Shown here: positions 2,515 through 17,345 of the stretch, piece after piece
Numbering within the stretch: the stretch's first letter is position 1
Layout: every line of letters begins with the position of its first letter
Origin: a virus
Virus record (IMG/VR): IMGVR_UViG_3300026519_000001
Coordinates: 1 to 64,000 of that record
DNA: 64,000 nt
Reading direction: 5' to 3' (one strand)
Translations under genes and position numbers: made by a program
Notes under the pieces: generated by a model
What the model saw: the letters and a program-made list of their open reading frames with translations, nothing else
Database searches by the model: none
What the model was told of the DNA's origin: nothing

Positions 2515-2943
2515 ATGAAAGATAGAAACATCCAACATAAAGACGATTGGGCGACACCAGCATATTTTTATGATGAATTAAACAAAGAGTTTGATTTTAA
2601 CTTTGATCCTTGCCCGTATCTGCACGATTTTAGTAAATGGAACGGACTTGAAATTGAATGGAAGGAGCGAAATTTTATTAACCCACCTTATAGCAGAAAA
2701 CTGAAAGCCGCATTTGTAATTAAGGCAATAGAAGAAAGTAAAAAAGGTAAATTATGTGTAATGCTTTTGCCTGTGAGTACAAGCACTCAATTATTCCACA
2801 AACACATATTGCCGAATGCAAAAGAAATACGATTTATAGAAAAAAGAATAAAATTTTGCGGTGTAAATACAAAAGGAGAATATGTTACAGGCAAATCAGG
2901 CATGCACGATAGTATGTTGGTGGTGTTTGATGGACGCACTTAG
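2515..2943 (+). CDS. Phage DNA N6-adenine methyltransferase (Dam-like)
   Basis: DDWATP, FDPCP and catalytic FINPPYS motifs; VMLLP; EIRFI. Confidence 0.85.
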   Translation: MKDRNIQHKDDWATPAYFYDELNKEFDFNFDPCPYLHDFSKWNGLEIEWKERNFINPPYSRKLKAAFVIKAIEESKKGKLCVMLLPVSTSTQLFHKHILPNAKEIRFIEKRIKFCGVNTKGEYVTGKSGMHDSMLVVFDGRT

Positions 2944-2956
2944 CATTTTTTATTGT

Positions 2957-3316
2957 GCACAACGAATAGCATAAGCGTAGTGCGACTTTAGAAACGAAAT
3001 TTCAAAATAATAACAGAACTAATAATTAAAGATTATGGATAACGAAATTAAAATTGAAGCAAAAGAATTAGTGAATAAAATATACCAACCTCTTGGATCT
3101 TTAGATTGTAAAGTAAATAGTGATACAATGTGGGAATATGCACAAGGCAGAACGATTGAAATTGTGGAACATTTTATTGCGAAAATGCCAGAGGGTTCTG
3201 CAAATTGGTTGCATCATAGAAAGTTGATAGACGCTATTAATAATCTTTAATTATGGCATTTGAAACACTAAACTTGATTTTAAGCACTGTATTAAGCATT
3301 ACGCTTATGCAGTGTT
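2957..3316 (+). repeat. Hairpin site with a gene in its loop
   Basis: AAC 2961-2963; arms GCATAAGCGTAGTGC / GCATTACGCTTATGC; GTT 3314. Confidence 0.8.
3035..3250 (+). CDS. Hypothetical protein nested in a hairpin-site loop
   Basis: 71-aa ORF between the two arms. Confidence 0.65.
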   Translation: MDNEIKIEAKELVNKIYQPLGSLDCKVNSDTMWEYAQGRTIEIVEHFIAKMPEGSANWLHHRKLIDAINNL

Positions 3317-3342
3317 GTAAAATCGTTTTAATGTTTTACAAC
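3314..3342 (+). repeat. Empty cassette, copy 1
   Basis: GTTGTAAAATCGTTTTAATGTTTTACAAC, identical to 6026-6054. Confidence 0.85.
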
Positions 3343-3463
3343 GATTTGTATATGTGGTGTTGCGTGATTTAGCACCGAACTATTAAGAAATACTTAAACG
3401 TTCAAATTAAGCACGAAAATTAATAAATAAACAATAACCAAGCAATAACATATATACCGTGTT
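3340..3463 (+). repeat. Hairpin site (118-nt class)
   Basis: Arms GTATATGTGGTGTTGC / GCAATAACATATATAC. Confidence 0.75.
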
Positions 3464-3485
3464 ATATGCTTTTAAAAATAACAAA

Positions 3486-3752
3486 ATGTTAAGAAAATTA
3501 TTTAATAAAATAATACCCGTATCTGATGGAATTAAAAAATTAGGACAGCAAATGATTGACAATCCTTTAGACTGGGTTCAAGGGCAATATGAGTTTGTAA
3601 ATCGCAAAAATAGGGATGTTGCAATATGGACTTGCAATGGAATTAATTCGATTAAAATATTTGGATTTGATGGATTAACTAAAAGCGAAAAAATATATAT
3701 AAACAACTGTATAAAGATGGCAATTGCAAATAGATTAGTTCAGTCTCTATAA
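3486..3752 (+). CDS. Cassette-borne hypothetical protein (cassette 3461-3763)
   Basis: Flanked by GTTATATGC / GCATATAAC; ATG at 3486 preferred over GTG at 3459. Confidence 0.7.
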   Translation: MLRKLFNKIIPVSDGIKKLGQQMIDNPLDWVQGQYEFVNRKNRDVAIWTCNGINSIKIFGFDGLTKSEKIYINNCIKMAIANRLVQSL

Positions 3753-3760
3753 TTGCATAT

Positions 3761-3884
3761 AACGATTTTAATAAGAATAGTAGCCGAAAATGAAACGCAA
3801 AACTTATAAAATTGAACAGAATTATAAACATAGATAATAGCTTAAATAAACAGCTTAACTCGGCTATTATTTTTATTTTTTGTT
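3761..3884 (+). repeat. Hairpin site (118-nt class)
   Basis: Arms AATAAGAATAGTAGCCG / CGGCTATTATTTTTATT. Confidence 0.8.
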
Positions 3885-3898
3885 AGGCACTTTAATTT

Positions 3899-4210
3899 AT
3901 GGATAATAGAAAATGGCTCAAAAGAAAATACCCAAAAACATTTAATGAGATAAATAATTTTCTTGATAATGAAACTTTGATATTTGTTAAAAAAGGAAAA
4001 TATAAAATAGGTATGATAACAGAAGATATTATACAAGAGGATATTATATATTTAAAAGGAACTTTATGTTATTTTAAACGAAGTAATCCTATAAATAGTT
4101 ATAATTATCCGTTGCATACAATTTCTGTAAAAGATATACATAATGTAACGCTTAGTAATTATCATAATTTTTGGGTAACACCCAATAATGTAATTGAAAT
4201 TTTTGAATGA
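3899..4210 (+). CDS. Cassette-borne hypothetical protein (cassette 3882-4223)
   Basis: Flanked by GTTAGGCAC / GTGCCTAAC. Confidence 0.7.
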   Translation: MDNRKWLKRKYPKTFNEINNFLDNETLIFVKKGKYKIGMITEDIIQEDIIYLKGTLCYFKRSNPINSYNYPLHTISVKDIHNVTLSNYHNFWVTPNNVIEIFE

Positions 4211-4220
4211 TATTGTGCCT

Positions 4221-4309
4221 AACGTTGAATCTATGTGTAGTACAGCCATACATATAGTTTCATCGTTTAATAAAAATGTTAATTGGCTGTATTACATATA
4301 GATAGTGTT
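4221..4309 (+). repeat. Hairpin site (80-nt class)
   Basis: Arms ATCTATGTGTAGTACAGCCA / TGGCTGTATTACATATAGAT. Confidence 0.85.
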
Positions 4310-4325
4310 ATGTGGCGTTTTATTT

Positions 4326-4550
4326 ATGGAACAAAGAAATATTAATAATGTTATTTGGTTTTATTACGACAGTGTAATGGAATTTTTGCAAGATTTAATA
4401 GAATATGAATGCGAAATATTTAGAGATGAATATGGTCGTAGGTGGCAATATAAGAAGTACAAATTTTATTTTGCTGATATAAATGAAGAATTAACGGAAG
4501 GACTTTCGTGTTTGCACTTGTTTAAATCAGGAATTACAAATGCCACCTAA
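4326..4550 (+). CDS. Cassette-borne hypothetical protein (cassette 4307-4551)
   Basis: Flanked by GTTATGTGGCGTTT / AAATGCCACCTAAC; stop codon lies inside the AAC end. Confidence 0.7.
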   Translation: MEQRNINNVIWFYYDSVMEFLQDLIEYECEIFRDEYGRRWQYKKYKFYFADINEELTEGLSCLHLFKSGITNAT

Positions 4551-4572
4551 CAACAGGATAACAGCAATTGCG
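4546..4572 (+). repeat. 27-bp direct repeat, copy 1
   Basis: CCTAACAACAGGATAACAGCAATTGCG, identical at 11312-11338. Confidence 0.9.
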
Positions 4573-4663
4573 TATATATTATAAACGAATATTAATTTTA
4601 CTAACATTAGGTAATATTAATTATTTGTTGTTACTTTGAATTAACAAAAAAAAGAGAGCAATT

Positions 4664-4930
4664 ATGATAAATAGAACTATTGAAATTGAAGATTTAGACA
4701 AAGAGCTGTCTATTACAGTAAAAATTAACTTTTCGGGAGACTGGGAAGAACATTTTGAACATGAAGGAAAAATTGAATATCAGCCAAAATTTAATGAAAT
4801 ACTTAGGGTTGTTGATATTAGTGATAACCCGAAGCATAGTCATAGCATTTTGGAAATTGCCGATGAGCATTACGAAATTGCCAATAAATATTTAGAAAAT
4901 CACGATGTGATGGAGGAGCTAAACCACTAA
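4664..4930 (+). CDS. Hypothetical protein
   Basis: 88-aa acidic ORF. Confidence 0.65.
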   Translation: MINRTIEIEDLDKELSITVKINFSGDWEEHFEHEGKIEYQPKFNEILRVVDISDNPKHSHSILEIADEHYEIANKYLENHDVMEELNH

Positions 4931-4933
4931 ATT

Positions 4934-5155
4934 ATGAAAAATATAATAATTTTAATGATTATTGCAGCAACATTAAGCTGCTCTAAAAAAGAAGAAATTA
5001 ATTGCAAGTGTGATTTTATTTCTTATGAAAGAGAAAATAGGGACTCGGAGTAGGTTGAGAAAAGCAGAATAAGCAGAATAACAGAGTGCGGTAAGCCACC
5101 ATTCTTTATTATTAGCAACACAGAATTATCTAAAGATGTAATTTCTTGCAATTAG
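4934..5155 (+). pseudogene. Small Cys-rich lipoprotein interrupted by an in-frame TAG
   Basis: MKNIIILMIIAATLSC (lipobox) SKKEEINCKC...DSE*VEKSR...ISCN*. TAG at 5051-5053; the frame stays open to 5155 and the next ATG is at 5158. Confidence 0.55.
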
Positions 5156-5157
5156 TT

Positions 5158-5361
5158 ATGGAAAAGTCAGAAAATAAATTAAAAGAGCAACAACTTAGGG
5201 CAGAAATTAGAATTATGCTATCAAAGTATATAGACAACTCACCGTCAATATCTTTAATAGAAAATAAGATAAGAGACCTTGAGCTGCTTGTTTTTAATCG
5301 TGCTTATAAACAAGTATCACAACGATTTGTATATGATTTTGTAGGCATTACGAGCCACTAA
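5158..5361 (+). CDS. Hypothetical protein whose 3' end runs into a hairpin left arm
   Basis: ATG at 5158; AAC at 5321-5323 lies inside the ORF. Confidence 0.55.
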   Translation: MEKSENKLKEQQLRAEIRIMLSKYIDNSPSISLIENKIRDLELLVFNRAYKQVSQRFVYDFVGITSH

Positions 5362-5443
5362 TTTTTTGAATTACCTACATATTTGAAACGAGAAAATAAA
5401 TTTGAATTATTAACCAAATCGCCTATAAATTATATACTTTGTT
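5321..5443 (+). repeat. Hairpin site (118-nt class)
   Basis: Arms GTATATGATTTTGTAGGC / GCCTATAAATTATATAC. Confidence 0.75.
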
Positions 5444-5473
5444 ATATATCTGGGCGGTTTTAAAGACTAAATT

Positions 5474-5686
5474 ATGATAGAAGAGTTAGAGAAAACAACA
5501 GACTACGCTAAGAAGTACAGAGGTGTAGCACAGCAATCACTTGAAAGAAACAATTATATGAACCAAATAGAAGATGGGGAGCAAATACAGCAAAGGATTA
5601 TAGATGCTGTGCTGGTTGACTTTATAAACTACATTGGAATGATGCACGGAATTGATTATGGAATTTATACAAAAGACTTAATGTAG
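5474..5686 (+). CDS. Cassette-borne hypothetical protein (cassette 5441-5699)
   Basis: Flanked by GTTATAT / ATATAAC. Confidence 0.7.
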   Translation: MIEELEKTTDYAKKYRGVAQQSLERNNYMNQIEDGEQIQQRIIDAVLVDFINYIGMMHGIDYGIYTKDLM

Positions 5687-5696
5687 CCTTGCATAT

Positions 5697-6028
5697 AACT
5701 ATTGCTATATGAATAGTGCGGATAAAATACACGAAACTTTGAATTAAACACAAACCTAATAATTAAAATTATGTACTTAATAAAAATAAAAACTCATAAC
5801 AATCACGGATGCTGGTTAAGGTCTTTTTACGATGGCGACCCTGATAGAACATTGATAAGAGAAAGTGCTTTGAAGTTTGCAAAGAAAAAGATGGCAGAAG
5901 GTAAAGTAAAAATGCTTAACCAACTACACCCTAATAGAAGTTTTGAATTAGAGAAATTTTAATTATGACATTTGAAACACTAAACGTTAATTACAGCACG
6001 AAACCAAGCATTATTTATATAGCGTGTT
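5697..6028 (+). repeat. Hairpin site with a gene in its loop
   Basis: Arms GCTATATGAATAGTGC / GCATTATTTATATAGC. Confidence 0.8.
5771..5962 (+). CDS. Hypothetical protein nested in a hairpin-site loop
   Basis: 63-aa ORF between the arms; motif GDPDRTL. Confidence 0.65.
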   Translation: MYLIKIKTHNNHGCWLRSFYDGDPDRTLIRESALKFAKKKMAEGKVKMLNQLHPNRSFELEKF

Positions 6029-6054
6029 GTAAAATCGTTTTAATGTTTTACAAC
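6026..6054 (+). repeat. Empty cassette, copy 2
   Basis: Identical to 3314-3342. Confidence 0.85.
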
Positions 6055-6137
6055 GGTTGGTATATGTGTTGTACGCCAATCACTTAACTTAAATTTTAGT
6101 ACGACACTTAATAGGCGTATAACATATATACCTTGTT
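6052..6137 (+). repeat. Hairpin site (80-nt class)
   Basis: Arms GGTATATGTGTTGTACGCC / GGCGTATAACATATATACC. Confidence 0.85.
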
Positions 6138-6168
6138 GTGTGTAGTACGGGTAAATAAAGAAGAAATT

Positions 6169-6363
6169 ATGAAGAAATATTTTAGAAAAGACAAACCAAA
6201 TAAAGACCAAATAATTGGGTTTAAATCGAAAAAAGGATTTTATCCTGAGATTGGTGTATTCCAAACATTTGATAATGGCATTGAAGAAGTTTATATACCT
6301 GCAAATGATGATGTAGAGAAGTTATTAGAAATTGAATATTGGTTTGAAGTACCTAAAAAGTAG
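6169..6363 (+). CDS. Cassette-borne hypothetical protein (cassette 6135-6376)
   Basis: Flanked by GTTGTGTGTAGTAC / GTATTACGCACAAC. Confidence 0.7.
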   Translation: MKKYFRKDKPNKDQIIGFKSKKGFYPEIGVFQTFDNGIEEVYIPANDDVEKLLEIEYWFEVPKK

Positions 6364-6373
6364 TATTACGCAC

Positions 6374-6498
6374 AACGAGTTACTTGTATGAGTAGTAGCC
6401 GTAAATAAGCACAGAATTGAGTAGATACAAAATAAATTAATAACAAGGTAATAGTTTATAAATACAGCCTAACACGGCTATTACTTATACAAATTGTT
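6374..6498 (+). repeat. Hairpin site (118-nt class)
   Basis: Arms TTGTATGAGTAGTAGCCGT / ACGGCTATTACTTATACAA. Confidence 0.85.
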
Positions 6499-6511
6499 AG
6501 GCAACGTTATT

Positions 6512-6736
6512 ATGAGTGAAAGTAAATTAAGAATATTCGGTGGAAAAGATGATGTTAGTTTTTGGAGTGATAAGCCTATGCGAAGAGGTAATCCAAACTT
6601 TAAAGAGAAATGGTATCATATACATTGGTATAATATTCTGTATCATCCAAAACATAAATCGACTGATGGTTCTATTGTAGAAGAAATGACAAATATAAAT
6701 CTATATAAATGTAGATGTGGTAAATGTAAGCAGTAG
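6512..6736 (+). CDS. Cassette-borne small protein, possibly Zn-binding (cassette 6496-6752)
   Basis: Flanked by GTTAGGCAACGTTA / TAATGTTGCCTAAC; HIH...CRCGKC. Confidence 0.7.
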   Translation: MSESKLRIFGGKDDVSFWSDKPMRRGNPNFKEKWYHIHWYNILYHPKHKSTDGSIVEEMTNINLYKCRCGKCKQ

Positions 6737-6749
6737 GCTAATGTTGCCT

Positions 6750-6871
6750 AACGGTTTGGCTATGTGTAGTGCCGACCTTGATAAATAACTACACTAACTT
6801 AAAACACTGAAACAATGGATAAAGAACATATTAAACAAGAAGAAAACAAGGCATTACATATAGGTGTTGTT
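6750..6871 (+). repeat. Hairpin site (118-nt class) with an ORF start in its loop
   Basis: Arms CTATGTGTAGTGCC / GGCATTACATATAG. Confidence 0.8.
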
Positions 6872-7015
6872 GTGTGTGGTTCTTGCGGTAAAGACATAAA
6901 GCCCGAAGATGATAAGCATTGTTTTTGGGATGAAGATATTGAAGATGGTATAAAGCCCGAATGTTTAGATTGTCATTTGGACAGAGAATCTATTATTAGA
7001 GACTTTGGTTTTTGA
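6815..7015 (+). CDS. Junction-spanning protein with CxxC...CxxC Zn-ribbon motif
   Basis: Starts in the loop and crosses GTT 6869 in frame into cassette 6869-7027 (GTTGTGTGTGGTTC / GAATTACACACAAC). Confidence 0.65.
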   Translation: MDKEHIKQEENKALHIGVVVCGSCGKDIKPEDDKHCFWDEDIEDGIKPECLDCHLDRESIIRDFGF

Positions 7016-7024
7016 ATTACACAC

Positions 7025-7147
7025 AACGTTACCGTGTATGGTTTCGTTGCGTGTAAATAAGAAAAAACATTGATTAAACAATAAATAAAATAAATACTAA
7101 CAAGCCTTTGGAATAGCAGTTAGAAGCAATGAATTATACACATTGTT
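7025..7147 (+). repeat. Hairpin site (118-nt class)
   Basis: Arms GTGTATGGTTTCGTTGC / GCAATGAATTATACAC. Confidence 0.75.
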
Positions 7148-7196
7148 ACCTACTGTACGAGTAAAAAGGCACAAACTTTAATAAAAAACAGAAATT

Positions 7197-7589
7197 ATGG
7201 GAATGTACACGGAACTAATATTTGGTGCTGATTTAAAACAAGACACACCAAAAAACGTAATTGAAGCCTTAAAATATATGATAGGCGATACAGAAGAAAA
7301 GCCTAATGACTTTCCTTTACCTGATGGTAGATGTGAATGGTTATTTAATAGTGCTAGTTATTACTTTGGTGTAAATAGACCAGTAAATAAAATGTGGTTT
7401 GATCATATTGATAATAATTGGGTTTTAAGCACCCGAAGCAATATAAAAAACTATGAAGGCGAAATTGAGGCTTTTTTGGAATGGATAAAACCATACATTG
7501 ATGGTGGTAGTGGTTATCGTGATATGTATGCAATAGTTACTTATGAAGAAGCAGAAGTGCCAAATATTTATTACTTGCGCGAAGATTAG
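7197..7589 (+). CDS. Cassette-borne hypothetical phage protein (cassette 7145-7602)
   Basis: Flanked by GTTACCTAC / GTAGGTAAC; MGMYTEL...IKNYEGEIEAFLEWI. Confidence 0.75.
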   Translation: MGMYTELIFGADLKQDTPKNVIEALKYMIGDTEEKPNDFPLPDGRCEWLFNSASYYFGVNRPVNKMWFDHIDNNWVLSTRSNIKNYEGEIEAFLEWIKPYIDGGSGYRDMYAIVTYEEAEVPNIYYLRED

Positions 7590-7599
7590 TATTGTAGGT

Positions 7600-7684
7600 A
7601 ACGGTTTGTGTATGAAAAGTAGCCCATACACAGGCTTTCGGAATTATTACAAAACTTAATGGGCTATTTTTTATACACTTTGTT
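7600..7684 (+). repeat. Hairpin site (80-nt class)
   Basis: Arms GTGTATGAAAAGTAGCCCAT / ATGGGCTATTTTTTATACAC. Confidence 0.85.
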
Positions 7685-7730
7685 AGCGTTTCGTTTTTTG
7701 AGCGTTGGCAGATAAAATAAAGGAAATATT

Positions 7731-7937
7731 ATGAGTACAAAATTTGTAGATAGAAAAAACGATGAAGAAATAATTGACATCGTAAACAGTATTTTATCAA
7801 ATGGTAAAATGCAAGTAGAAACTATTAATGAAGCTATATTAGTCAAGTTAATGGAAATAAGGAATACTCCTATAAAATACGATAAATCGTTTAGGAATAT
7901 TGATAAAGATTTTAAGCGTTGGCAAAATGAACGCTAA
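7731..7937 (+). CDS. Cassette-borne hypothetical protein (cassette 7682-7938)
   Basis: Flanked by GTTAGCGTT / AACGCTAAC; stop codon inside the AAC end. Confidence 0.7.
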   Translation: MSTKFVDRKNDEEIIDIVNSILSNGKMQVETINEAILVKLMEIRNTPIKYDKSFRNIDKDFKRWQNER

Positions 7938-7997
7938 CACACGGCTAACCGGCATGCTTGATATTTGTGGATATACGGAACTTAAAAATTATCAAAA

Positions 7998-8087
7998 ATG
8001 AAGTTTATAATAATTGACATAGATGGAACTGTTTCAAAAATAGGAGACCGTCTTAAATGCTTTCAAGTAGAAGAAGGAGATTTTTAA
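7998..8087 (+). pseudogene. Internally deleted HAD 3'-phosphatase (PNK/PseT-like) remnant
   Basis: MKFIIIDIDGTVSKIGDRLKCFQVEEGDF: the N-terminal DxDGT motif is joined directly to the C-terminal CxQVxxGDF motif. Confidence 0.65.
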
Positions 8088-8088
8088 A

Positions 8089-8274
8089 ATGTATAAAATA
8101 TCATATAGAATCTCGTATCGACCAATAAAGCTGCCTGTTATATTTCAAGGTATAAAAGGATATGCACCTAGATTGTGGCATGTATTTTACGAACACAGAT
8201 GGATGTTATTTTCTGAATTTTATAACATTCAAAAACATGATGAAATGATTATTGGGTTATTTTTAGAAAAATAG
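8089..8274 (+). CDS. Hypothetical protein
   Basis: Short ORF packed between neighbours. Confidence 0.5.
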   Translation: MYKISYRISYRPIKLPVIFQGIKGYAPRLWHVFYEHRWMLFSEFYNIQKHDEMIIGLFLEK

Positions 8275-8276
8275 GA

Positions 8277-8612
8277 ATGAACAAAATACCAACCATATTA
8301 CAAGATTACTTTCTTCTAACTTTAGATAAAAGGTTTGAGTCTAAGTCAAAGTCTGGATTAATGACGGTTAATGAATCATACATAGCCGGAACAGCAGAAG
8401 AAGAGGAAGGGTGGGAAAAGAACCTCCACAAAAGAATTTATGGAACTGTAATATCTTGCCCAAAGTCATTTAGTGATGACCCTATATTTGCAATAGACCC
8501 CGGTAGCCCAACCCCTAAAAGATATATAAGTGCCGAAGAAATAGAAAATAAGGTAAAGATTGGGATGAGAAATTACTCAAGGACAGATTACTCGCCAACG
8601 CCTTTAATTTAG
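8277..8612 (+). CDS. Possible GroES-like protein, probably truncated
   Basis: KSKSGLM...GTVISCP resembles GroES-fold motifs; weak. Confidence 0.35.
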   Translation: MNKIPTILQDYFLLTLDKRFESKSKSGLMTVNESYIAGTAEEEEGWEKNLHKRIYGTVISCPKSFSDDPIFAIDPGSPTPKRYISAEEIENKVKIGMRNYSRTDYSPTPLI

Positions 8613-8635
8613 ATAAATTTATTACAAAAGAAAGG

Positions 8636-9004
8636 TTGGAAAAGAGCAAAACAGGAAATGTAATAGGGCAACTCTCTAAATGGATGCAAGAAGACGGAAT
8701 GCCTTACTACATTGATACACTTTACTATAATCACTTAGGTAAAAAGTTGCCTGCATCTGCTTTAGGATATACGCCAAATGGCGAAGGTATAAACTTTCTT
8801 CCAATCTTGTTAAATGTTAGATACTCTGATAAAGGCAAAAACCATTTAGTTGGTGGTAAAATAAGCAAAAACGGTGTTTTGTACTTATACGATAGTTTAA
8901 AAGAAGAAATGATTGAAACTACACTCGCAAAAGCAAATAGAATGTACCATAATGTATATGGCTTGTTTATGTCTGTTGAAACTGGCGACTATATTTTTAT
9001 ATAA
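8636..9004 (+). CDS. Hypothetical protein or gene fragment
   Basis: ORF with TTG start, ending just before a short hairpin site at 9028-9071. Confidence 0.45.
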   Translation: MEKSKTGNVIGQLSKWMQEDGMPYYIDTLYYNHLGKKLPASALGYTPNGEGINFLPILLNVRYSDKGKNHLVGGKISKNGVLYLYDSLKEEMIETTLAKANRMYHNVYGLFMSVETGDYIFI

Positions 9005-9027
9005 GCACAAGGTTAGTACTTGTAGTT

Positions 9028-9071
9028 AACGAGATAGGCTAAACGGTTGTTTTAATGCCGTTTTAGCCATT
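9028..9071 (+). repeat. Minimal or degenerate hairpin site
   Basis: AAC, GGCTAAACGG, TTGTTTTAATG, CCGTTTTAGCC; no intact downstream GTT. Confidence 0.5.
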
Positions 9072-9132
9072 TTGCTTGTATATATCGTATATATCATATA
9101 CCTTAGTAATATCAAATTAAAACATTAAGAAA

Positions 9133-9306
9133 ATGACAAACTCAGAATTAAGAATCGAAATAGCAAAGTTAGAAGAACAAAAAATAAACTTTTGCGATAA
9201 CAATTTGTTATTTAACCAATTTACTGCACTGATTAATGAAATTAAAATAGAAATACATAAAGATAGTAAAGTTGCACTAAAAGCACTTGGATTTGGAGAA
9301 AGATAA
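9133..9306 (+). CDS. Hypothetical 57-aa protein (not in the ORF track)
   Basis: MTNSELRIEIAKLEEQK...KALGFGER*; more plausible than the antisense ORF 9117-9341. Confidence 0.55.
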   Translation: MTNSELRIEIAKLEEQKINFCDNNLLFNQFTALINEIKIEIHKDSKVALKALGFGER

Positions 9307-9439
9307 TTGACATACCAGAAGATATTAAGAAACAATTGCAAATACTTGCTATTAAAGCGGATAAGGATTTAAAGAACTATATACAAGACTTACTAATTAG
9401 CCATATAGCATATAGCGTGGGCAAAAAATAGTTACATAT

Positions 9440-9560
9440 AACGGTTTTAATAAGAATAGTAGCGTGTAATTATGCGGAAACTATCAGATTGAAATAATTA
9501 ATTAACAGGTAATAGCCACTAAAAAGACACCTTAACAGGCTATTATTTTTATACATTGTT
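9440..9560 (+). repeat. Hairpin site (118-nt class)
   Basis: Left arm TTTTAATAAGAATAGTAGC, same as site 3763; right arm GCTATTATTTTTAT. Confidence 0.75.
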
Positions 9561-9577
9561 AGGGTGCGTTACTTAAA

Positions 9578-9832
9578 ATGAACAACCCAATTAAAGATAA
9601 CAGAATTGTAAAAGACAAAACTTTCGCTTTAAGGCTTTTAAGTTTTGCGTTAGAAACCAACTGTGTTGATGCTTCTAGTGAAGATGAAAAAGAATCTATG
9701 ATAAGTTACTCTACAAGTTTACTTAAATACCAAATAGAAACTGCAACCGAAATACACGAAACGGCTTATTTAGAAAGGTGTAATGCAAAAGCAAGACTTA
9801 AAAAAGGATTAAAGTTTTTAGGTAAAGCCTAA
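9578..9832 (+). CDS. Cassette-borne hypothetical protein (cassette 9558-9843)
   Basis: Flanked by GTTAGGGTGCGTTA / TAATGCACCCTAAC. Confidence 0.7.
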   Translation: MNNPIKDNRIVKDKTFALRLLSFALETNCVDASSEDEKESMISYSTSLLKYQIETATEIHETAYLERCNAKARLKKGLKFLGKA

Positions 9833-9957
9833 TGCACCCTAACGATGCCTCACTTTGCTATATTTATTGTTAGGCATCTTTTAAAATTACGGCATTATGG
9901 GATATAATCTAATAAGTGGTTGTCATAAATGTGAAAAGCAAATATTTCACTTTAGAA

Positions 9958-10194
9958 ATGAAGAAAATAACACATAATTTAGGAGAGAAATTGCAATGGT
10001 TTTTATACTTTGTTATATGCCGTTTTGGTTTTCATAAATGGGGAATGACCAAATGGTGCAGATTTAAAGATAAAAAATGTAAGTATTTAGTTGAAGAAGG
10101 TTTTGACAGAGATTGCGAACATCCATTTAATTATGTTGTGATTGGTAATGATACAATACTAAATAAATGCACAAAATGTGGTAAAGAATTTTAG
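9958..10194 (+). CDS. Junction-spanning Cys/His-rich protein
   Basis: MKKITHNLGEKLQWFLYFV|ICRFGFHKW...CTKCGK; crosses GTT 10012 in frame. Confidence 0.6.
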   Translation: MKKITHNLGEKLQWFLYFVICRFGFHKWGMTKWCRFKDKKCKYLVEEGFDRDCEHPFNYVVIGNDTILNKCTKCGKEF

Positions 10195-10209
10195 CAATTT
10201 ATGTTTGCT

Positions 10210-10397
10210 AACGGTTTGTGCAAGGTTAGTGCGGAATTAATAACAGAACTTAATAAATATAAACTATGGTAAATATAAACACTATTGAAGGAATTGAAAA
10301 CCTTATAGATAAAAGAACAAAACCTTTAAAAGAGGAAATACTTAAACTACGATTTGAATTAGAAGAACTGAAACAAGCATTAACTATACAGATTGTT
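10210..10397 (+). repeat. Hairpin site with an ORF in its loop
   Basis: Arms TGTGCAAGGTTAGTGC / GCATTAACTATACA. Confidence 0.65.
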
Positions 10398-10415
10398 AGC
10401 ATTTCGGTTTTCTAA
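10266..10415 (+). CDS. Junction-spanning 49-aa coiled-coil peptide (not in the ORF track)
   Basis: MVNINTIEG...ELKQALTIQIVSISVF*; crosses GTT 10395 in frame. Confidence 0.55.
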   Translation: MVNINTIEGIENLIDKRTKPLKEEILKLRFELEELKQALTIQIVSISVF

Positions 10416-10431
10416 CAAAACTAAAATTATT

Positions 10432-10719
10432 ATGAAACAAATTATTGAATGGTCAAAAGGAAACCCTGGAGCAATGAACTTTATGATGGAGTTTTTTAAA
10501 CCAGAAAACGCAGTATTAGGAATTGGAATACTATCGAAATTGGAAGAATTGAAAACTATTAGAGGAACTAATCTTTATGTGCTTTACTCTGATTTATGTG
10601 GTAAGGATTTAAAGGCAGTTGAAACTCTTTGTAAAAATTGCCCGTCTGAAATATTAGAAGATGCTTGTTCAAGACAAGACTACTCTGGTAGAGAGTTGGT
10701 AAAGGAGTACCTTACATAG
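10432..10719 (+). CDS. Hypothetical phage protein
   Basis: MKQIIEWSKGNPGAM...GTNLYVLYSDLC. Confidence 0.7.
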   Translation: MKQIIEWSKGNPGAMNFMMEFFKPENAVLGIGILSKLEELKTIRGTNLYVLYSDLCGKDLKAVETLCKNCPSEILEDACSRQDYSGRELVKEYLT

Positions 10720-10846
10720 TGATAGATGATAGTGAAATAATTAATACAAGAGAAATGGCAGAAGCATTAGAACACGCAATGTTTATTAGTTTTTGTTTTA
10801 ATAACCCTGATAGAATAGACTTACGTTAGTAATTTTTATCGTGGGT

Positions 10847-10905
10847 AATGAATGGTTGTATTGTGTCGTATTTGCTTTTCGCAAATATGCAATATATACT
10901 TTGTT
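10847..10905 (+). repeat. Short hairpin site with AAT in place of AAC
   Basis: Arms GTATTGTGTCGTATTTGC / GCAAATATGCAATATATAC; GTT 10903. Confidence 0.6.
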
Positions 10906-10953
10906 AGGCTTATGTACGGTAAATGATAAACTAAATTATAAAAACAGAATAAA

Positions 10954-11304
10954 ATGGAAAAATTTAAGATTGAAATTGACAGAAGAGAAATAGTTGAAAC
11001 TATTAACAAAGGTATTCACGATAAAATTAGAGAGCAAATGAACGCTCAATCTAAGCAAATTGAAGCATCTATTGCTGATCACTTTAAAAGATCGTTTTTC
11101 AATGAAAAGAAAAATGAATTTGAATCTGCTTTGGATTATACTATTGAAACTTCATTTAGAGATGGATTGGAATTAGCAATGAAAGAAATGAAGTTCAAAG
11201 AACTAATTGCAGAAAAAGCAAAAGAATTATTAAGTGATGACAATTTGATACAGGAACTTGCAGAAGCAAAAGTTAGAAGTTCTTTAGGTTTACCGCTAAA
11301 GTAG
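10954..11304 (+). CDS. Cassette-borne helical protein (cassette 10903-11317)
   Basis: Flanked by GTTAGGCTTA / TAAGCCTAAC. Confidence 0.7.
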   Translation: MEKFKIEIDRREIVETINKGIHDKIREQMNAQSKQIEASIADHFKRSFFNEKKNEFESALDYTIETSFRDGLELAMKEMKFKELIAEKAKELLSDDNLIQELAEAKVRSSLGLPLK

Positions 11305-11311
11305 TATTAAG

Positions 11312-11338
11312 CCTAACAACAGGATAACAGCAATTGCG
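11312..11338 (+). repeat. 27-bp direct repeat, copy 2
   Basis: Identical to 4546-4572. Confidence 0.9.
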
Positions 11339-11527
11339 GTATTAGACAAGACTAGTTTGATTAAAACCGCTAATGGTGAATAATGAAAAGTATAATATGA
11401 TAATCCATACTTAAAATTTTGCTATAAGAATTGAACTTAGATGGCTTTTTACTTTATACAATGTTACCCATCTTTTAAAAGTACAAAAATTTGAAATTGT
11501 TAGAATATTAAAAAATAAAATTAAAAA

Positions 11528-11917
11528 ATGTCATTAACAAAAGAACAAAAAAGTAAACAAGCAAAAAATAATCGTGCAAAAGGACATTCTTTAGAAAGAA
11601 GAATAAGATTAAAATTTATTGAATTAGGTTTTGATAAATGCCGAACCAGTAGACAGGCTTCCAGATTATTAGATGATAGTAAAGTAGATTTAGCACAAAT
11701 ACCTTATAATGTACAATGTAAAAAAGGTTATCCAAAAGGAATAAATTATACAAAGCTGTTTCAAGATATGAATGAGAGTTTGAAAGAACACTTTATGGAA
11801 GGTGATCCAATAATAGATTATCCTAAAATTATCATACATGATAAAGATAGGAAGAAATCAGAAAAGCTTGTAATTATGCAAGAAGAAGATTTTTGGAAAA
11901 TATTTAAACATAAATAA
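11528..11917 (+). CDS. Holliday junction resolvase-like PD-(D/E)XK nuclease
   Basis: KGHSLERR...VDL...VQCK motif layout. Confidence 0.7.
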   Translation: MSLTKEQKSKQAKNNRAKGHSLERRIRLKFIELGFDKCRTSRQASRLLDDSKVDLAQIPYNVQCKKGYPKGINYTKLFQDMNESLKEHFMEGDPIIDYPKIIIHDKDRKKSEKLVIMQEEDFWKIFKHK

Positions 11918-12242: not shown

Positions 12243-13316
12243 ATGAAAAGAATAAAAAGAAATTTTAATGAACCAGAATATAGACAACTTAAATGTATTA
12301 GTTATTCACAATTATCAAATTTAGATAGTTATCCAGAAAGTTTAATTCAAACAAAACCTATGGAAATGACCGAGCCATTAATATATGGTTCAGCAGTAGA
12401 TTGCTTAGCATTTGATGGTAGAGAAGTGTTTGATAAAAAATTTACGGTAATAAGTCAAGAAAAACCTTCTTGGATGTTAGAAAAAGTATTAAAAGGTGTT
12501 ATAGATGAAATATTTATTACTCACAATGAATTATTAGGCATACCTATATCTGAAGATTTATCTAAATATTCAGATATTATATTAAAAGTGGCTAAATCAG
12601 TTGAGTATGGGAAAGGATGGAAGCCTGAAACTATTATAAGAAAAACTATTGAGGGGTGTGGTGAATTATATAAAAACACCATTAAAAATAGAGATAAACT
12701 TGCATTAAGTCCTCAACAATATGAATATGTAGAAAATAGTGTAACTACTTTATTTACACATGAATTTACGGCAGAATTTTTTACAGCTGATGAAGGTCAA
12801 GATATTTATTATCAATTACCTATTATATGGGATTATTTTGATAAGGAGTTAAACAAAACAATACATTGCAAATCTTTATTAGATATTTTATTAATAGATC
12901 ATAATACTAAAACAATTTATCCAATAGATTTAAAAACAACTGGAAAATCCATATATTCTTTTAATAAAAGTTTTATTGAATGGCGTTATTTTTTACAAGC
13001 TTCTTTTTATTCTGATGCAGTTAAACATTTATGCAATGTACAATATCCTGAATTAGCAGATTATAATATAGCATTATTTAAATTTGTAGTTATATCTTCT
13101 AAAAACCCACGTAAACCTCTAGCATTTCAAATTACAAATGGCGTATTGGATGCTGGTAAATTTGGAACTGTTAATCCTAATAATCATAAAATTAAACAAA
13201 GAGGATATTTAGAATTAGTAAGGGATATGCAATGGCATATAAACAATCAAAAATTTGATTATCCAAAAGAAATTTATGACAAAAAAGGAATGGTTATACT
13301 AGACAGTTTATTTTAA
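12243..13316 (+). CDS. PD-(D/E)XK exonuclease (RecE/exonuclease VIII-like)
   Basis: SYSQL, GSAVD, KSLLD...IDLKTT and YFLQASFY motifs. Confidence 0.8.
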   Translation: MKRIKRNFNEPEYRQLKCISYSQLSNLDSYPESLIQTKPMEMTEPLIYGSAVDCLAFDGREVFDKKFTVISQEKPSWMLEKVLKGVIDEIFITHNELLGIPISEDLSKYSDIILKVAKSVEYGKGWKPETIIRKTIEGCGELYKNTIKNRDKLALSPQQYEYVENSVTTLFTHEFTAEFFTADEGQDIYYQLPIIWDYFDKELNKTIHCKSLLDILLIDHNTKTIYPIDLKTTGKSIYSFNKSFIEWRYFLQASFYSDAVKHLCNVQYPELADYNIALFKFVVISSKNPRKPLAFQITNGVLDAGKFGTVNPNNHKIKQRGYLELVRDMQWHINNQKFDYPKEIYDKKGMVILDSLF

Positions 13317-15983: not shown

Positions 15984-17345
15984 ATGACAGGAGAATTTAT
16001 TGTTGCTAAAATAAAGCAACTAGATAAAATAGAAGGAGCTGATAAAATTGTCAGTTCTAATCTATTTGGAGAAACTATTATTACTTCAACAAATACTAAA
16101 GTTGGTACAGTAGGTTTATTATTTGACATTGAAACTGTTTTAAGTCTAGAGCTGTGTCAAAAATTAAATCTTCACAGGCATAGTAATTTGAATGATAATA
16201 AAGAAGTAGTAGGATACTTTGACGATGCAAGAAGAGTAAGACCCATTAGGCTTAAAGGGGTGAAGTGTAGTGCATTCTTTTTGCCTCTTGATGGCATAGA
16301 AGTATTTACAGGATTAGATTTATTAGAAGACCTTAAAGTAGGTGCACAAGGTAATAATATAGGGGAATATCCAATATGTGCTAAGTACTTAAAAAAAAGA
16401 ATAAGAACTGAAAATAAAGAAGGTAAAATCAAGGAAGATTTAGTTCCTACTTTTAAACAACATCTTGATACTGATCAGGCATTAAGAAACATGCAAAAAG
16501 TTCAAGTTGGAGATTTGGCTATAATTTCAGAAAAAATTCATGGTACTAGCTTCAGATGTGGTTATTTACTTACTAAAACTAAATTAAGTTTATGGAGTCA
16601 GTTTTTTAACTTTATAGCTAATGGTATTTGGAATACTCATACTAATGTTTATAACTTTATAGTAGGTAGCCGTAGAGTCTTAAAGTTTATTGGTGGAGAG
16701 GAATTTAAAAACAAACAAAGTTACTATGACCGTGATTTATGGACATTTGTAGCTAAAAGAGAGTTTGAAGGAAAATTAGAAAAGGGAGAAACAATTTATG
16801 GAGAGATCGCAGGATATGATTTATCAGGAGGACTAATAATAGGTTCTCAAGGAAATAAAAAGTTAAAACCATTTATGGGCAAAAAAGAATACAAAACTTT
16901 TATTGATAGATATGGAGAAATTACTGAATTTACCTATGGATGCACTTTAGATGAAGACCCAGAAAACAAAACTCTATTCAATTTAGAAAAGATTAATAAA
17001 GTTTTTGTTTATAGAATTACTACAACTAATGAAGATGGAGTATCCATGGATTTATCTTGGGAACAAGTTAAAATGAGGTGCGAACAAATGAATGTTAATC
17101 ACGTTCCTGAATTAGCTAAATTTCTTATACAAGAAGGAGACACACAAATGATTGAAGATTATTTAATAGATGAGGCTAAAGAGCCTTCTAGATTGTTTCC
17201 TCAACATCTAAGAGAAGGCGTTTGTTTAAGATTAGAAGGGTCTTCATTAACACCTAAAATATTTAAAGAAAAAAATTATTTTTTTAAAGTTATTGAAAGA
17301 ATTATCAAAGAAACAGAAGAAACTAATTTAGAAGACGAAAATTAA
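15984..17345 (+). CDS. RNA ligase (Rnl2/DRB0094-like family)
   Basis: Nucleotidyltransferase motif I EKIHGT; IYGE; EGVCLR; terminal KxK; N-terminal IEGADKI. Confidence 0.85.
   Translation: MTGEFIVAKIKQLDKIEGADKIVSSNLFGETIITSTNTKVGTVGLLFDIETVLSLELCQKLNLHRHSNLNDNKEVVGYFDDARRVRPIRLKGVKCSAFFLPLDGIEVFTGLDLLEDLKVGAQGNNIGEYPICAKYLKKRIRTENKEGKIKEDLVPTFKQHLDTDQALRNMQKVQVGDLAIISEKIHGTSFRCGYLLTKTKLSLWSQFFNFIANGIWNTHTNVYNFIVGSRRVLKFIGGEEFKNKQSYYDRDLWTFVAKREFEGKLEKGETIYGEIAGYDLSGGLIIGSQGNKKLKPFMGKKEYKTFIDRYGEITEFTYGCTLDEDPENKTLFNLEKINKVFVYRITTTNEDGVSMDLSWEQVKMRCEQMNVNHVPELAKFLIQEGDTQMIEDYLIDEAKEPSRLFPQHLREGVCLRLEGSSLTPKIFKEKNYFFKVIERIIKETEETNLEDEN

Follow-up and report, generated by a model that had tools for sequence, protein, structure and literature searches.

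What are the imperfect hairpins that separate the small genes near the start of a marine phage genome, and which of their strands is the one that folds? The genome is the virus record IMGVR_UViG_3300026519_000001, which is complete (94,261 bp, with terminal repeats) and originates from a hydrothermal-vent metagenome. The window analyzed here is its first 64 kb, with a G+C content of about 28%. Genes are on the + strand up to about 19 kb; beyond, the - strand codes for giant open reading frames (ORFs) of 1,439, 2,147 and 1,348 amino acids (aa). Giant - strand ORFs are typical of crAss-type phages, and the virus is a marine crAss-type phage. Between 2.9 and 11.5 kb, imperfect hairpins with AAC and GTT ends separate small + strand ORFs (12 sites within positions 2961-9560 of the window). 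A second hairpin array is found at 81.9-85 kb of the genome. We consider the hairpins to be folded single-strand DNA recombination sites, resembling the attC sites of integrons, of an integron-like cassette system, and assign a probability of about 0.62 to this. The system would be common to chromosomes of Bacteroidia (mainly of the Flavobacteria type) and their phages.

A preliminary description of this array had reported two G.T wobbles at fixed distances from the ends. The letters were checked at the ten sites that it named, counting from the C of AAC (+12/+17) and the G of GTT (-10/-15). Both wobbles (+12/-10 and +17/-15) are present at the sites 3342, 3763, 4223, 5699, 6054, 6752, 7602 and 9442. 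At site 6376, both are displaced by 2 (+14/-10 and +19/-15), and site 2963 has the +17 wobble alone, its +12 pair being G-C; for these two sites, the letters also agree with the description. Beyond it, we found that the +1/-1 pair beside the core is likewise G.T in nine of the ten sites. The wobble G and T are conserved as letters, the left arm having the form ..TAT-G-NNNA-G-T... On the folding strand, a 5' YAAC-G pairs with a 3' T-GTTR. This is followed by an asymmetric internal loop (4-6 nt versus 2 nt) and by an upper stem of 18-24 bp, which is free in sequence save for the G.T at pairs 7 and 12, counted upward from the loop. Terminal loops span 7 to more than 300 nt. The longer left spacer that had been described was recovered as well: the 5' linker has 4, 5 or 6 nt, while the 3' linker has 2 nt in 58 of 59 sites, so that the difference is +2 to +4.

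Do the wobbles persist in larger site collections? For a covariance model (R1), nine short sites were aligned and folded. It was searched against the window, the remaining genome, IMG/VR loci retrieved via the methyltransferase gene (see below) and the Cellulophaga phage phi19:3, which resulted in 58 distinct sites. AAC and GTT are held by 55-58 of these 58. The +1/-1 pair is G.T in 56/58. The first wobble is G.T in 39 sites (A-T in 10, G-C in 7) and the second in 52/55, while every other stem pair takes several Watson-Crick types. An IMG/VR pattern scan that fixes only the non-wobble letters, with the wobbles set to N, is free of model-fit bias. It returned 63 distinct matches, 46 of which are stem-supported at the free positions; in these, the first wobble is G.T in 44/46 and the second in 46/46. 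The type of mismatch was obtained from a symmetric scan that accepts Watson-Crick pairs only: high-confidence sites have G in the 5' arm and T in the 3' arm, the other strand having A.C. Random wobble positions in a larger collection had been named as the outcome that would speak against the description, and this is not what the counts show; the wobble observation is confirmed as right and general. Two further approaches were abandoned. Ungapped motif scans that count G.T as a pair gave 38-50 matches per shuffled genome and were replaced by the Watson-Crick-only detection, the model and the pattern scan. An energy scan for AAC..GTT hairpins had too much noise to be used.

The wobble recurs outside the sites. 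The sequence after GTT pairs with that ahead of the next AAC, so that a 14-15-bp stem encloses each gene. In these outer stems, pair 11 is G.T in 23/27 cases, with G on the 5' arm, and overall there are 28 G.T versus 4 T.G. If pairs are numbered from the internal loop, the outer-stem wobble is number 12 going outward and the +17/-15 wobble is number 12 going inward, and each is set in the local motif A-G-T over A-T-T. In our own reading, a circular cassette site would thus be composed of an unpaired centre and, on its two sides, half-sites of about 12 bp each, which is the layout of a tyrosine-recombinase core site.

Fixed wobbles may also be nothing but inherited letters of one ancestral repeat, or the result of strand-biased deamination, and not a selected mark. 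This would fit with the conservation of the wobble G and T as sequence, with the many sites that fall into few near-identical types, and with a + strand that is G-rich. However, between the two unchanged G.T pairs, we found 19 different, fully paired Watson-Crick tetramers, and the second wobble is kept at the rates given above while its neighbours change on both sides. Two-sided changes occur at 13 of the 15 upper-stem pairs. In the R1 alignment, which is fitted to the model and thus favours structure, 95.3% of cells are paired (72.7% in shuffles), and the covariation score is 0.598 versus 0.189 in shuffled data; none of 500 shuffles reached 0.598, and slid controls collapsed. The Watson-Crick covariation around the wobbles that had been noticed earlier is thus borne out. 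Moreover, the G is invariably contributed by the 5' arm and the T by the 3' arm, an arm bias which deamination would not give and which the outer stems repeat, and the A-G-T/A-T-T motif reappears there at an equal distance from the loop. We consider inherited letters without a function to be very improbable.

It had been proposed that the top strand, or the RNA, is the folded substrate. When both strands were folded, the wobble strand was lower in 43/46 sites with DNA parameters (-11.3 versus -9.0 kcal/mol) and in 45/46 with RNA parameters. For the window sites, the + strand was lower in 11/12 (DNA parameters). The two strands thus do not fold equally well, which had been the second outcome named as speaking against the description. 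In the phage, the + (coding) strand bears all G.T pairs, and the phage sites examined are without exception in sense orientation to their genes. The family also occurs in chromosomes (see below). There, at 11 places in 10 genomes, the sites are oriented antisense to the neighbouring genes, whose stop codons abut them. Four small contigs in Bacteroidia assemblies have the phage-type sense layout. Because the same wobble-bearing family is antisense to its flanking genes in chromosomes, the folding strand is not tied to the transcript. Therefore, a role as DNA is argued, and a role as RNA is disfavoured. Of the two options proposed, the top strand as folded DNA is supported by the G.T pairs and the better fold; the RNA does not agree with the antisense chromosomal sites.

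The RNA alternative nevertheless deserves a closer look. The hairpins would be processing or stability elements of an early polycistronic transcript, a ribonuclease would read the G.U pairs and the lopsided loop, and recombination would be a by-product. The model for this is the early region of phage T7, whose RNase III sites are hairpins between genes that have an asymmetric internal loop and covarying stems and that function on the RNA sense strand only. The co-orientation of phage sites and genes, with all G.T pairs on the sense strand, is as expected for such elements. The outer stems reach from just 5' of the start codon to the stop codon, unrelated ORFs are carried in the same frame, and the 12th-pair wobbles on either side of the loop may be read as a symmetric ruler. 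Unlike in T7, the polarity relative to the gene flips in chromosomes, at the 11 places mentioned, with identical wobbles. In addition, Rfam has no match at E<=1 over positions 2800-11800, the junctions of inherited modules are exactly at the cores (see below), and within the array the lower stem is just 5 bp, because adjacent flanks do not pair mutually. We thus consider RNA processing elements to be unlikely.

Similarity junctions between contigs are found exactly at AAC/GTT, and therefore the co-inherited unit consists of a site and its downstream gene, with AAC at both ends. This phage unit mirrors the classical cassette. The viral loci L002 and L007 share only 565 bp, which extend from the AAC of the site 5' of the methyltransferase to the AAC past this gene, while L002 and L009 share a stretch from GTT to AAC. 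Junctions exactly after AAC were seen when L002 was compared with L007, L008, L003 and L009, the upstream side being at GTT or AAC. In L003, L007 and L008, the similarity stops exactly after AAC, and there is no hairpin next. For segment endpoints over all loci, AAC is enriched only about twofold because most segments are outside arrays.

Elsewhere, the frame is retained and the gene is exchanged. The site at 9440-9560 and its leader match phi19:3 up to the start codon (9451-9580 with 81% sequence identity, the core at 9511-9580 with 94%); the 3' flank matches too, while the enclosed ORFs are unrelated. The region 5321-5700 and L083 4491-4950 (genome 82491-82950) have the same site, 5' leader and 3' flank (TAGCCTTGYATATAAC), and their ORFs (70 and 96 aa) are unrelated. 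The ORF at 6133-6363 and the methyltransferase from L002 have a common flank pair and are also unrelated. For one site body, we found at least eight different right flanks. Array comparison with close relatives was attempted via the primase, which gave a single locus (47% identity). In one DNA run from the source, we found no clean deletion joint at a core, and the loose ends are mostly accounted for by paralogous copies from the second array. As a separate observation, in a contig of low depth from the source metagenome, the arms of the site at 5697-6028 are retained, and 238 other letters replace the 188-nt loop ORF (5768-5957). The hairpin is unchanged here, and its payload is exchanged.

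The first gene of the array codes for a DNA methyltransferase (2515-2943, + strand, 142 aa). It is a cassette between sites in more than 15 other viral contigs. Its relatives number 88 in IMG/VR and 11 in contigs of metagenome-assembled genomes, with at least four complementary flank pairs (GTGTGT/ACACAC, AGGTGC/GCACCT, GTAAAC/GTTTAC, ATGCCC/GGGCAT).

Exchange of small genes between repeated stem-loops has a precedent. In T4-type phages, PeSL elements (Arbiol et al. 2010, PMC2839356) contain a sigma-70 promoter and a terminator and recombine by homology. As here, repeated stem-loops flank small orphan genes in hyperplastic regions and mark points of modular shuffling. By analogy, our sites could be regulatory cassettes (promoter and/or terminator), with genes being shuffled by homologous recombination between the short cores. 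This would account for sites located just 5' of a small gene in a hyperplastic region and for exchange at both conserved cores. However, when we inspected the right arms, together with the leaders of the sites that have an ORF in the loop, a conserved Bacteroidetes -7 box (TAnnTTTG) in a constant position was not seen, and there is a site class without a TATA-like arm. The right arm was rejected as a promoter for the latter reason and because its spacing to TTG varies. No U-tract follows the site stems, though ordinary U-tract terminators occur in the window. The cores are just 5-10 nt, which is short for homologous exchange. Also, in contrast to PeSL, the junctions are exact, neither a promoter nor a U-tract was found, and chromosomal copies are antisense to the genes, with their gene-relative orientation flipped. 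Regulatory cassettes of this type are quite unlikely in our view.

How far does the family extend? It is found in unrelated phages of Flavobacteria, among them phi19:3, phi39:1 and Polaribacter phage P12002L, as well as in many IMG/VR contigs. No sites are present in phi14:2, a related crAss-type phage, whose early transcripts showed no common upstream motif (10.1101/2020.03.07.982082). A link to the crAss-type virion RNA polymerase, which had been considered, was discarded on these grounds. The R1 search detected sites in 19 of 151 Bacteroidia genomes. The chromosomal sites have the same cores, linkers, wobbles and flank rule as the phage sites. In three genomes (G014, G121 and G146), arrays are located 1-5 kb from a tyrosine recombinase gene, which is co-oriented with the cassette genes. 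Chromosomal cassettes are far larger than those of phages (L187/G014, L188/G121): two ORFs have 748 and 1,017 aa, and one pair of sites encloses a block of five genes that is about 6 kb long.

The recombinases from G014 and G121 are 43% identical. Both pass NF040815 (XerA / integron integrase; 224-226 bits with a cut-off of 220) and fail TIGR02249, the IntI model (207-214 bits with a cut-off of 265). The protein from G121 aligns continuously to archaeal XerA. Residues 179-244 of IntI4 cover the region in which the integron-specific part that contacts extrahelical bases is located. To IntI4 (2A3V), the G121 protein aligns in two pieces, with 24 residues opposite the 66 of this region, about 42 being absent. 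Judged from these alignments, the chromosomal recombinase is of the Xer type and lacks the IntI-specific insert. Homologs were found in all seven site-bearing genomes that were tested directly (7/7). Overall, a homolog is present in 15/19 site-bearing genomes versus 60/132 others, the 60 including the unpublished genome G099 (Fisher p = 0.007). Many of the homolog genes are close to a contig end (no more than a few hundred bases away), which is what a neighbouring repeat array would lead one to expect. The tyrosine recombinase gp036 of phi19:3, which is encoded beside the array of that phage, was dropped as a candidate, being outside the chromosomal recombinase family. Pfam and PHROGs scans of 30 ORFs around the arrays returned just replication genes and a NUMOD4 protein. 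The Y1 HUH transposase (PF01797), which is the mark of IS200/IS605 or REP/RAYT hairpins, is absent from the phage, phi19:3, P12002L and the L007 record; host genomes were not searched for it. In the window, an exonuclease VIII-like gene (12243-13316) and a gene for a 453-aa RNA ligase (phrog_968; 15984-17345) are located 3' of the array.

The attC sites of integrons are the textbook case of a recombinase that reads the shape of DNA rather than its sequence, the known code being flipped-out bases that are read by an insert unique to IntI. Our sites share several features with attC. They have inverse cores (RYYYAAC...GTTRRRY), with GCCTAAC/GTTAGGC occurring verbatim at 4217, 6746, 3882 and 6496. 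As in attC from class 1 integrons and Vibrio (VchIntIA with the Vibrio cholerae repeat VCR, PDB 2A3V), there are 57-140 nt, an imperfect hairpin with two paired boxes, an unpaired centre and a variable terminal structure. In both systems, it is structure and not sequence that is conserved, one strand is favoured, cassette ends are complementary, and genes are organized in arrays. The chromosomal members also have the layout of classical integrons: the gene is followed by the site, it is the noncoding strand that folds, and a tyrosine recombinase is adjoining. There are also differences. No conserved extrahelical base was found; canonical sites pair gap-free over 16-20 bp without a recurrent bulge and have the fixed G.T instead. 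The recombinase is Xer-like and without the IntI insert. Throughout the phage contigs examined, it is the coding strand that folds, and the co-inherited site is 5' of the gene. Paired ends are longer (14-15 bp), genes can occupy the loop of a site, and modules swap at both cores. It had been suggested that the wobbles replace extrahelical bases as marks of recognition or strand choice. This is a plausible hypothesis, and it fits with the missing IntI insert.

Another parallel among phages is CTX. In CTX-type phages, XerCD recombines an attP that is one strand folded into a hairpin; this hairpin imitates a duplex core site whose centre is imperfect. Unlike this single site per phage, which serves integration at dif, we see an array of cassette boundaries.

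Integrase-less, attC-like arrays with methyltransferase cassettes are known from lytic phages of marine bacteria, and our arrays resemble these. If the sites are counted as attC-type, the array is a CALIN (cluster of attC sites lacking an integrase), having at least two such sites and no integrase nearby. Qi et al. 2023 (PMC9892861) described CALINs in virulent phages; one of these is Polaribacter phage P12002L, which has methyltransferase cassettes. The sites were taken as ordinary attC, were found by HattCI/Infernal and were tested with IntI1. The R1 model has four matches in P12002L. P12002L_attC1 shares core, spacer and loop motif with the hairpin at 9038-9069 of the window (one difference in 32 nt by eye), a hairpin that has no clear AAC/GTT frame itself. 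P12002L attC2, which was recombined by IntI1 (PMC9892861), is not a whole member of the wobble family. The wobble grammar, the mirror polarity and an Xer-type partner were not found in that publication (PMC9892861). A literature search with incomplete coverage retrieved no paper on an integron-like system of Flavobacteria with an Xer-type enzyme.

Under the interpretation as folded DNA recombination sites, the phage would have two CALIN-like arrays without a recombinase, and a host recombinase would act on them in trans. A dimer of this enzyme may bind the folded strand and, by analogy with IntI, may cut in the AAC of the 5' arm. The wobbles and the lopsided loop would then distinguish the reactive strand from its A.C-bearing complement.

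Several points weigh against this interpretation. The phage genome (94 kb) has no tyrosine recombinase (PF00589), no IntI (TIGR02249) and no Y1 transposase (PF01797), and across 19 viral loci there is no enzyme gene common to the surroundings of the arrays. No actual recombination event was observed. P12002L_attC1, a relative of the short class and the sole close relative tested in the literature, is the only site that was not recombined by IntI1, no product having been verified for it (PMC9892861). Exchange also occurs at GTT and at ORF borders, neither of which is explained by a single crossover in one core. The adjacency of array and recombinase could be checked in three genomes only, and the recombinase family is common in general (75/151 genomes). 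The energy gap between the strands is modest (about 2 kcal/mol with DNA parameters). Finally, many sites are related by descent, so that the site counts do not represent independent events.

It is tempting to speculate further. There may be a second, undescribed kind of integron in Bacteroidia and their phages, in which an Xer-type recombinase without the insert reads hairpins that are coded by G.T wobbles at a fixed distance (the 12th pair to either side of the lopsided central loop) instead of extrahelical bases. The arrays kept by phages would have mirror polarity and no integrase, and during infection phages would borrow the host enzyme for swapping anti-defence genes. We put this broader proposal forward tentatively, its chances being slightly below even. 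If true, fixed-distance mispairs plus an asymmetric loop would be a second code, suited to a simpler recombinase, and would illustrate a way for strand choice to evolve when there is no IntI insert. It would also account for the fact that most of these arrays escape standard integron finders, and it would provide lytic marine phages with a concrete route to trade methyltransferases and small orphan genes, both among themselves and with the hosts. A handful of oligonucleotides would suffice to test so simple a grammar.

The individual sites of the window, all on the + strand, are as follows. The site at 2961-3316 has a 71-aa ORF (3035-3250) in its loop, with G-C at +12 and G.T at +17. The 124-nt site at 3340-3463 (AAC..GTT) has G.T at +1, +12 and +17 and a single G/A mismatch at +15. 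Another 124-nt site with both wobbles (3761-3884) has the right core GTTAGGC. The site at 4221-4309 (89 nt, left core GCCTAAC) belongs to the short class, has both wobbles and is part of the R1 training set. The site at 5321-5443 has the first wobble and a 1-nt bulge ahead of the second; a near copy is found in the second array (genome 82491-82617). A 63-aa ORF (5771-5962) is in the loop of the site at 5697-6028, which has both wobbles. The 86-nt site at 6052-6137 is of the short class and has both wobbles as well. In the 125-nt site at 6374-6498, the 5' linker is longer by 2 nt, so that the wobbles are at +14 and +19. The 122-nt site at 6750-6871 has both wobbles, and its right arm is within an ORF (6815-7015). 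A weaker family member with a stem indel (25.5 bits) is at 7025-7147. The top match to the model is the 85-nt, short-class site at 7600-7684, which scores 93.2 bits on the + strand and 23.6 bits on the - strand. The 121-nt site at 9440-9560 again has both wobbles. As an example of a cassette payload, the region 6496-6752 (+ strand) has its own 14-bp outer stem, formed by the GTT 5' flank and the AAC 3' flank, with G.T at pair 11.

Some minor features of the sites deserve mention. Both sites with an ORF in the loop (2961-3316 and 5697-6028) are followed by an identical 29-nt minimal hairpin, GTTGTAAAA-TCGTTTTAATG-TTTTACAAC, at 3314-3342 and 6026-6054, respectively, which may be called an "empty cassette". 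A site with an ORF in its loop and the identical 29-mer are also found in Cellulophaga phage phi39:1 (L082, about 715-934). In the 120-nt class (3761-3884, 6374-6498 and 9440-9560), the 3' part of the loop contains a partial copy of the left arm, e.g., GTAATAG. This copy can pair perfectly with the right arm, with A replacing the wobble G, which gives an alternative inner hairpin. Pairing of the 5' linker with the loop (GGTTC with GAACC), which would give a pseudoknot, was considered, but it was seen in three sites and is not general. The loops of the sites are not random: RGCAC follows the left arm, a motif similar to AAACTTTGAATT is frequent, and TTAAT is located ahead of the right arm. Some ORFs start in the loop of a site and continue through the right arm, past the GTT core and into the module that follows (6750-6871; L083 3988-4108; L081 5561-5679). 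The N-terminal peptides of such ORFs are alike in this phage and in phi19:3.

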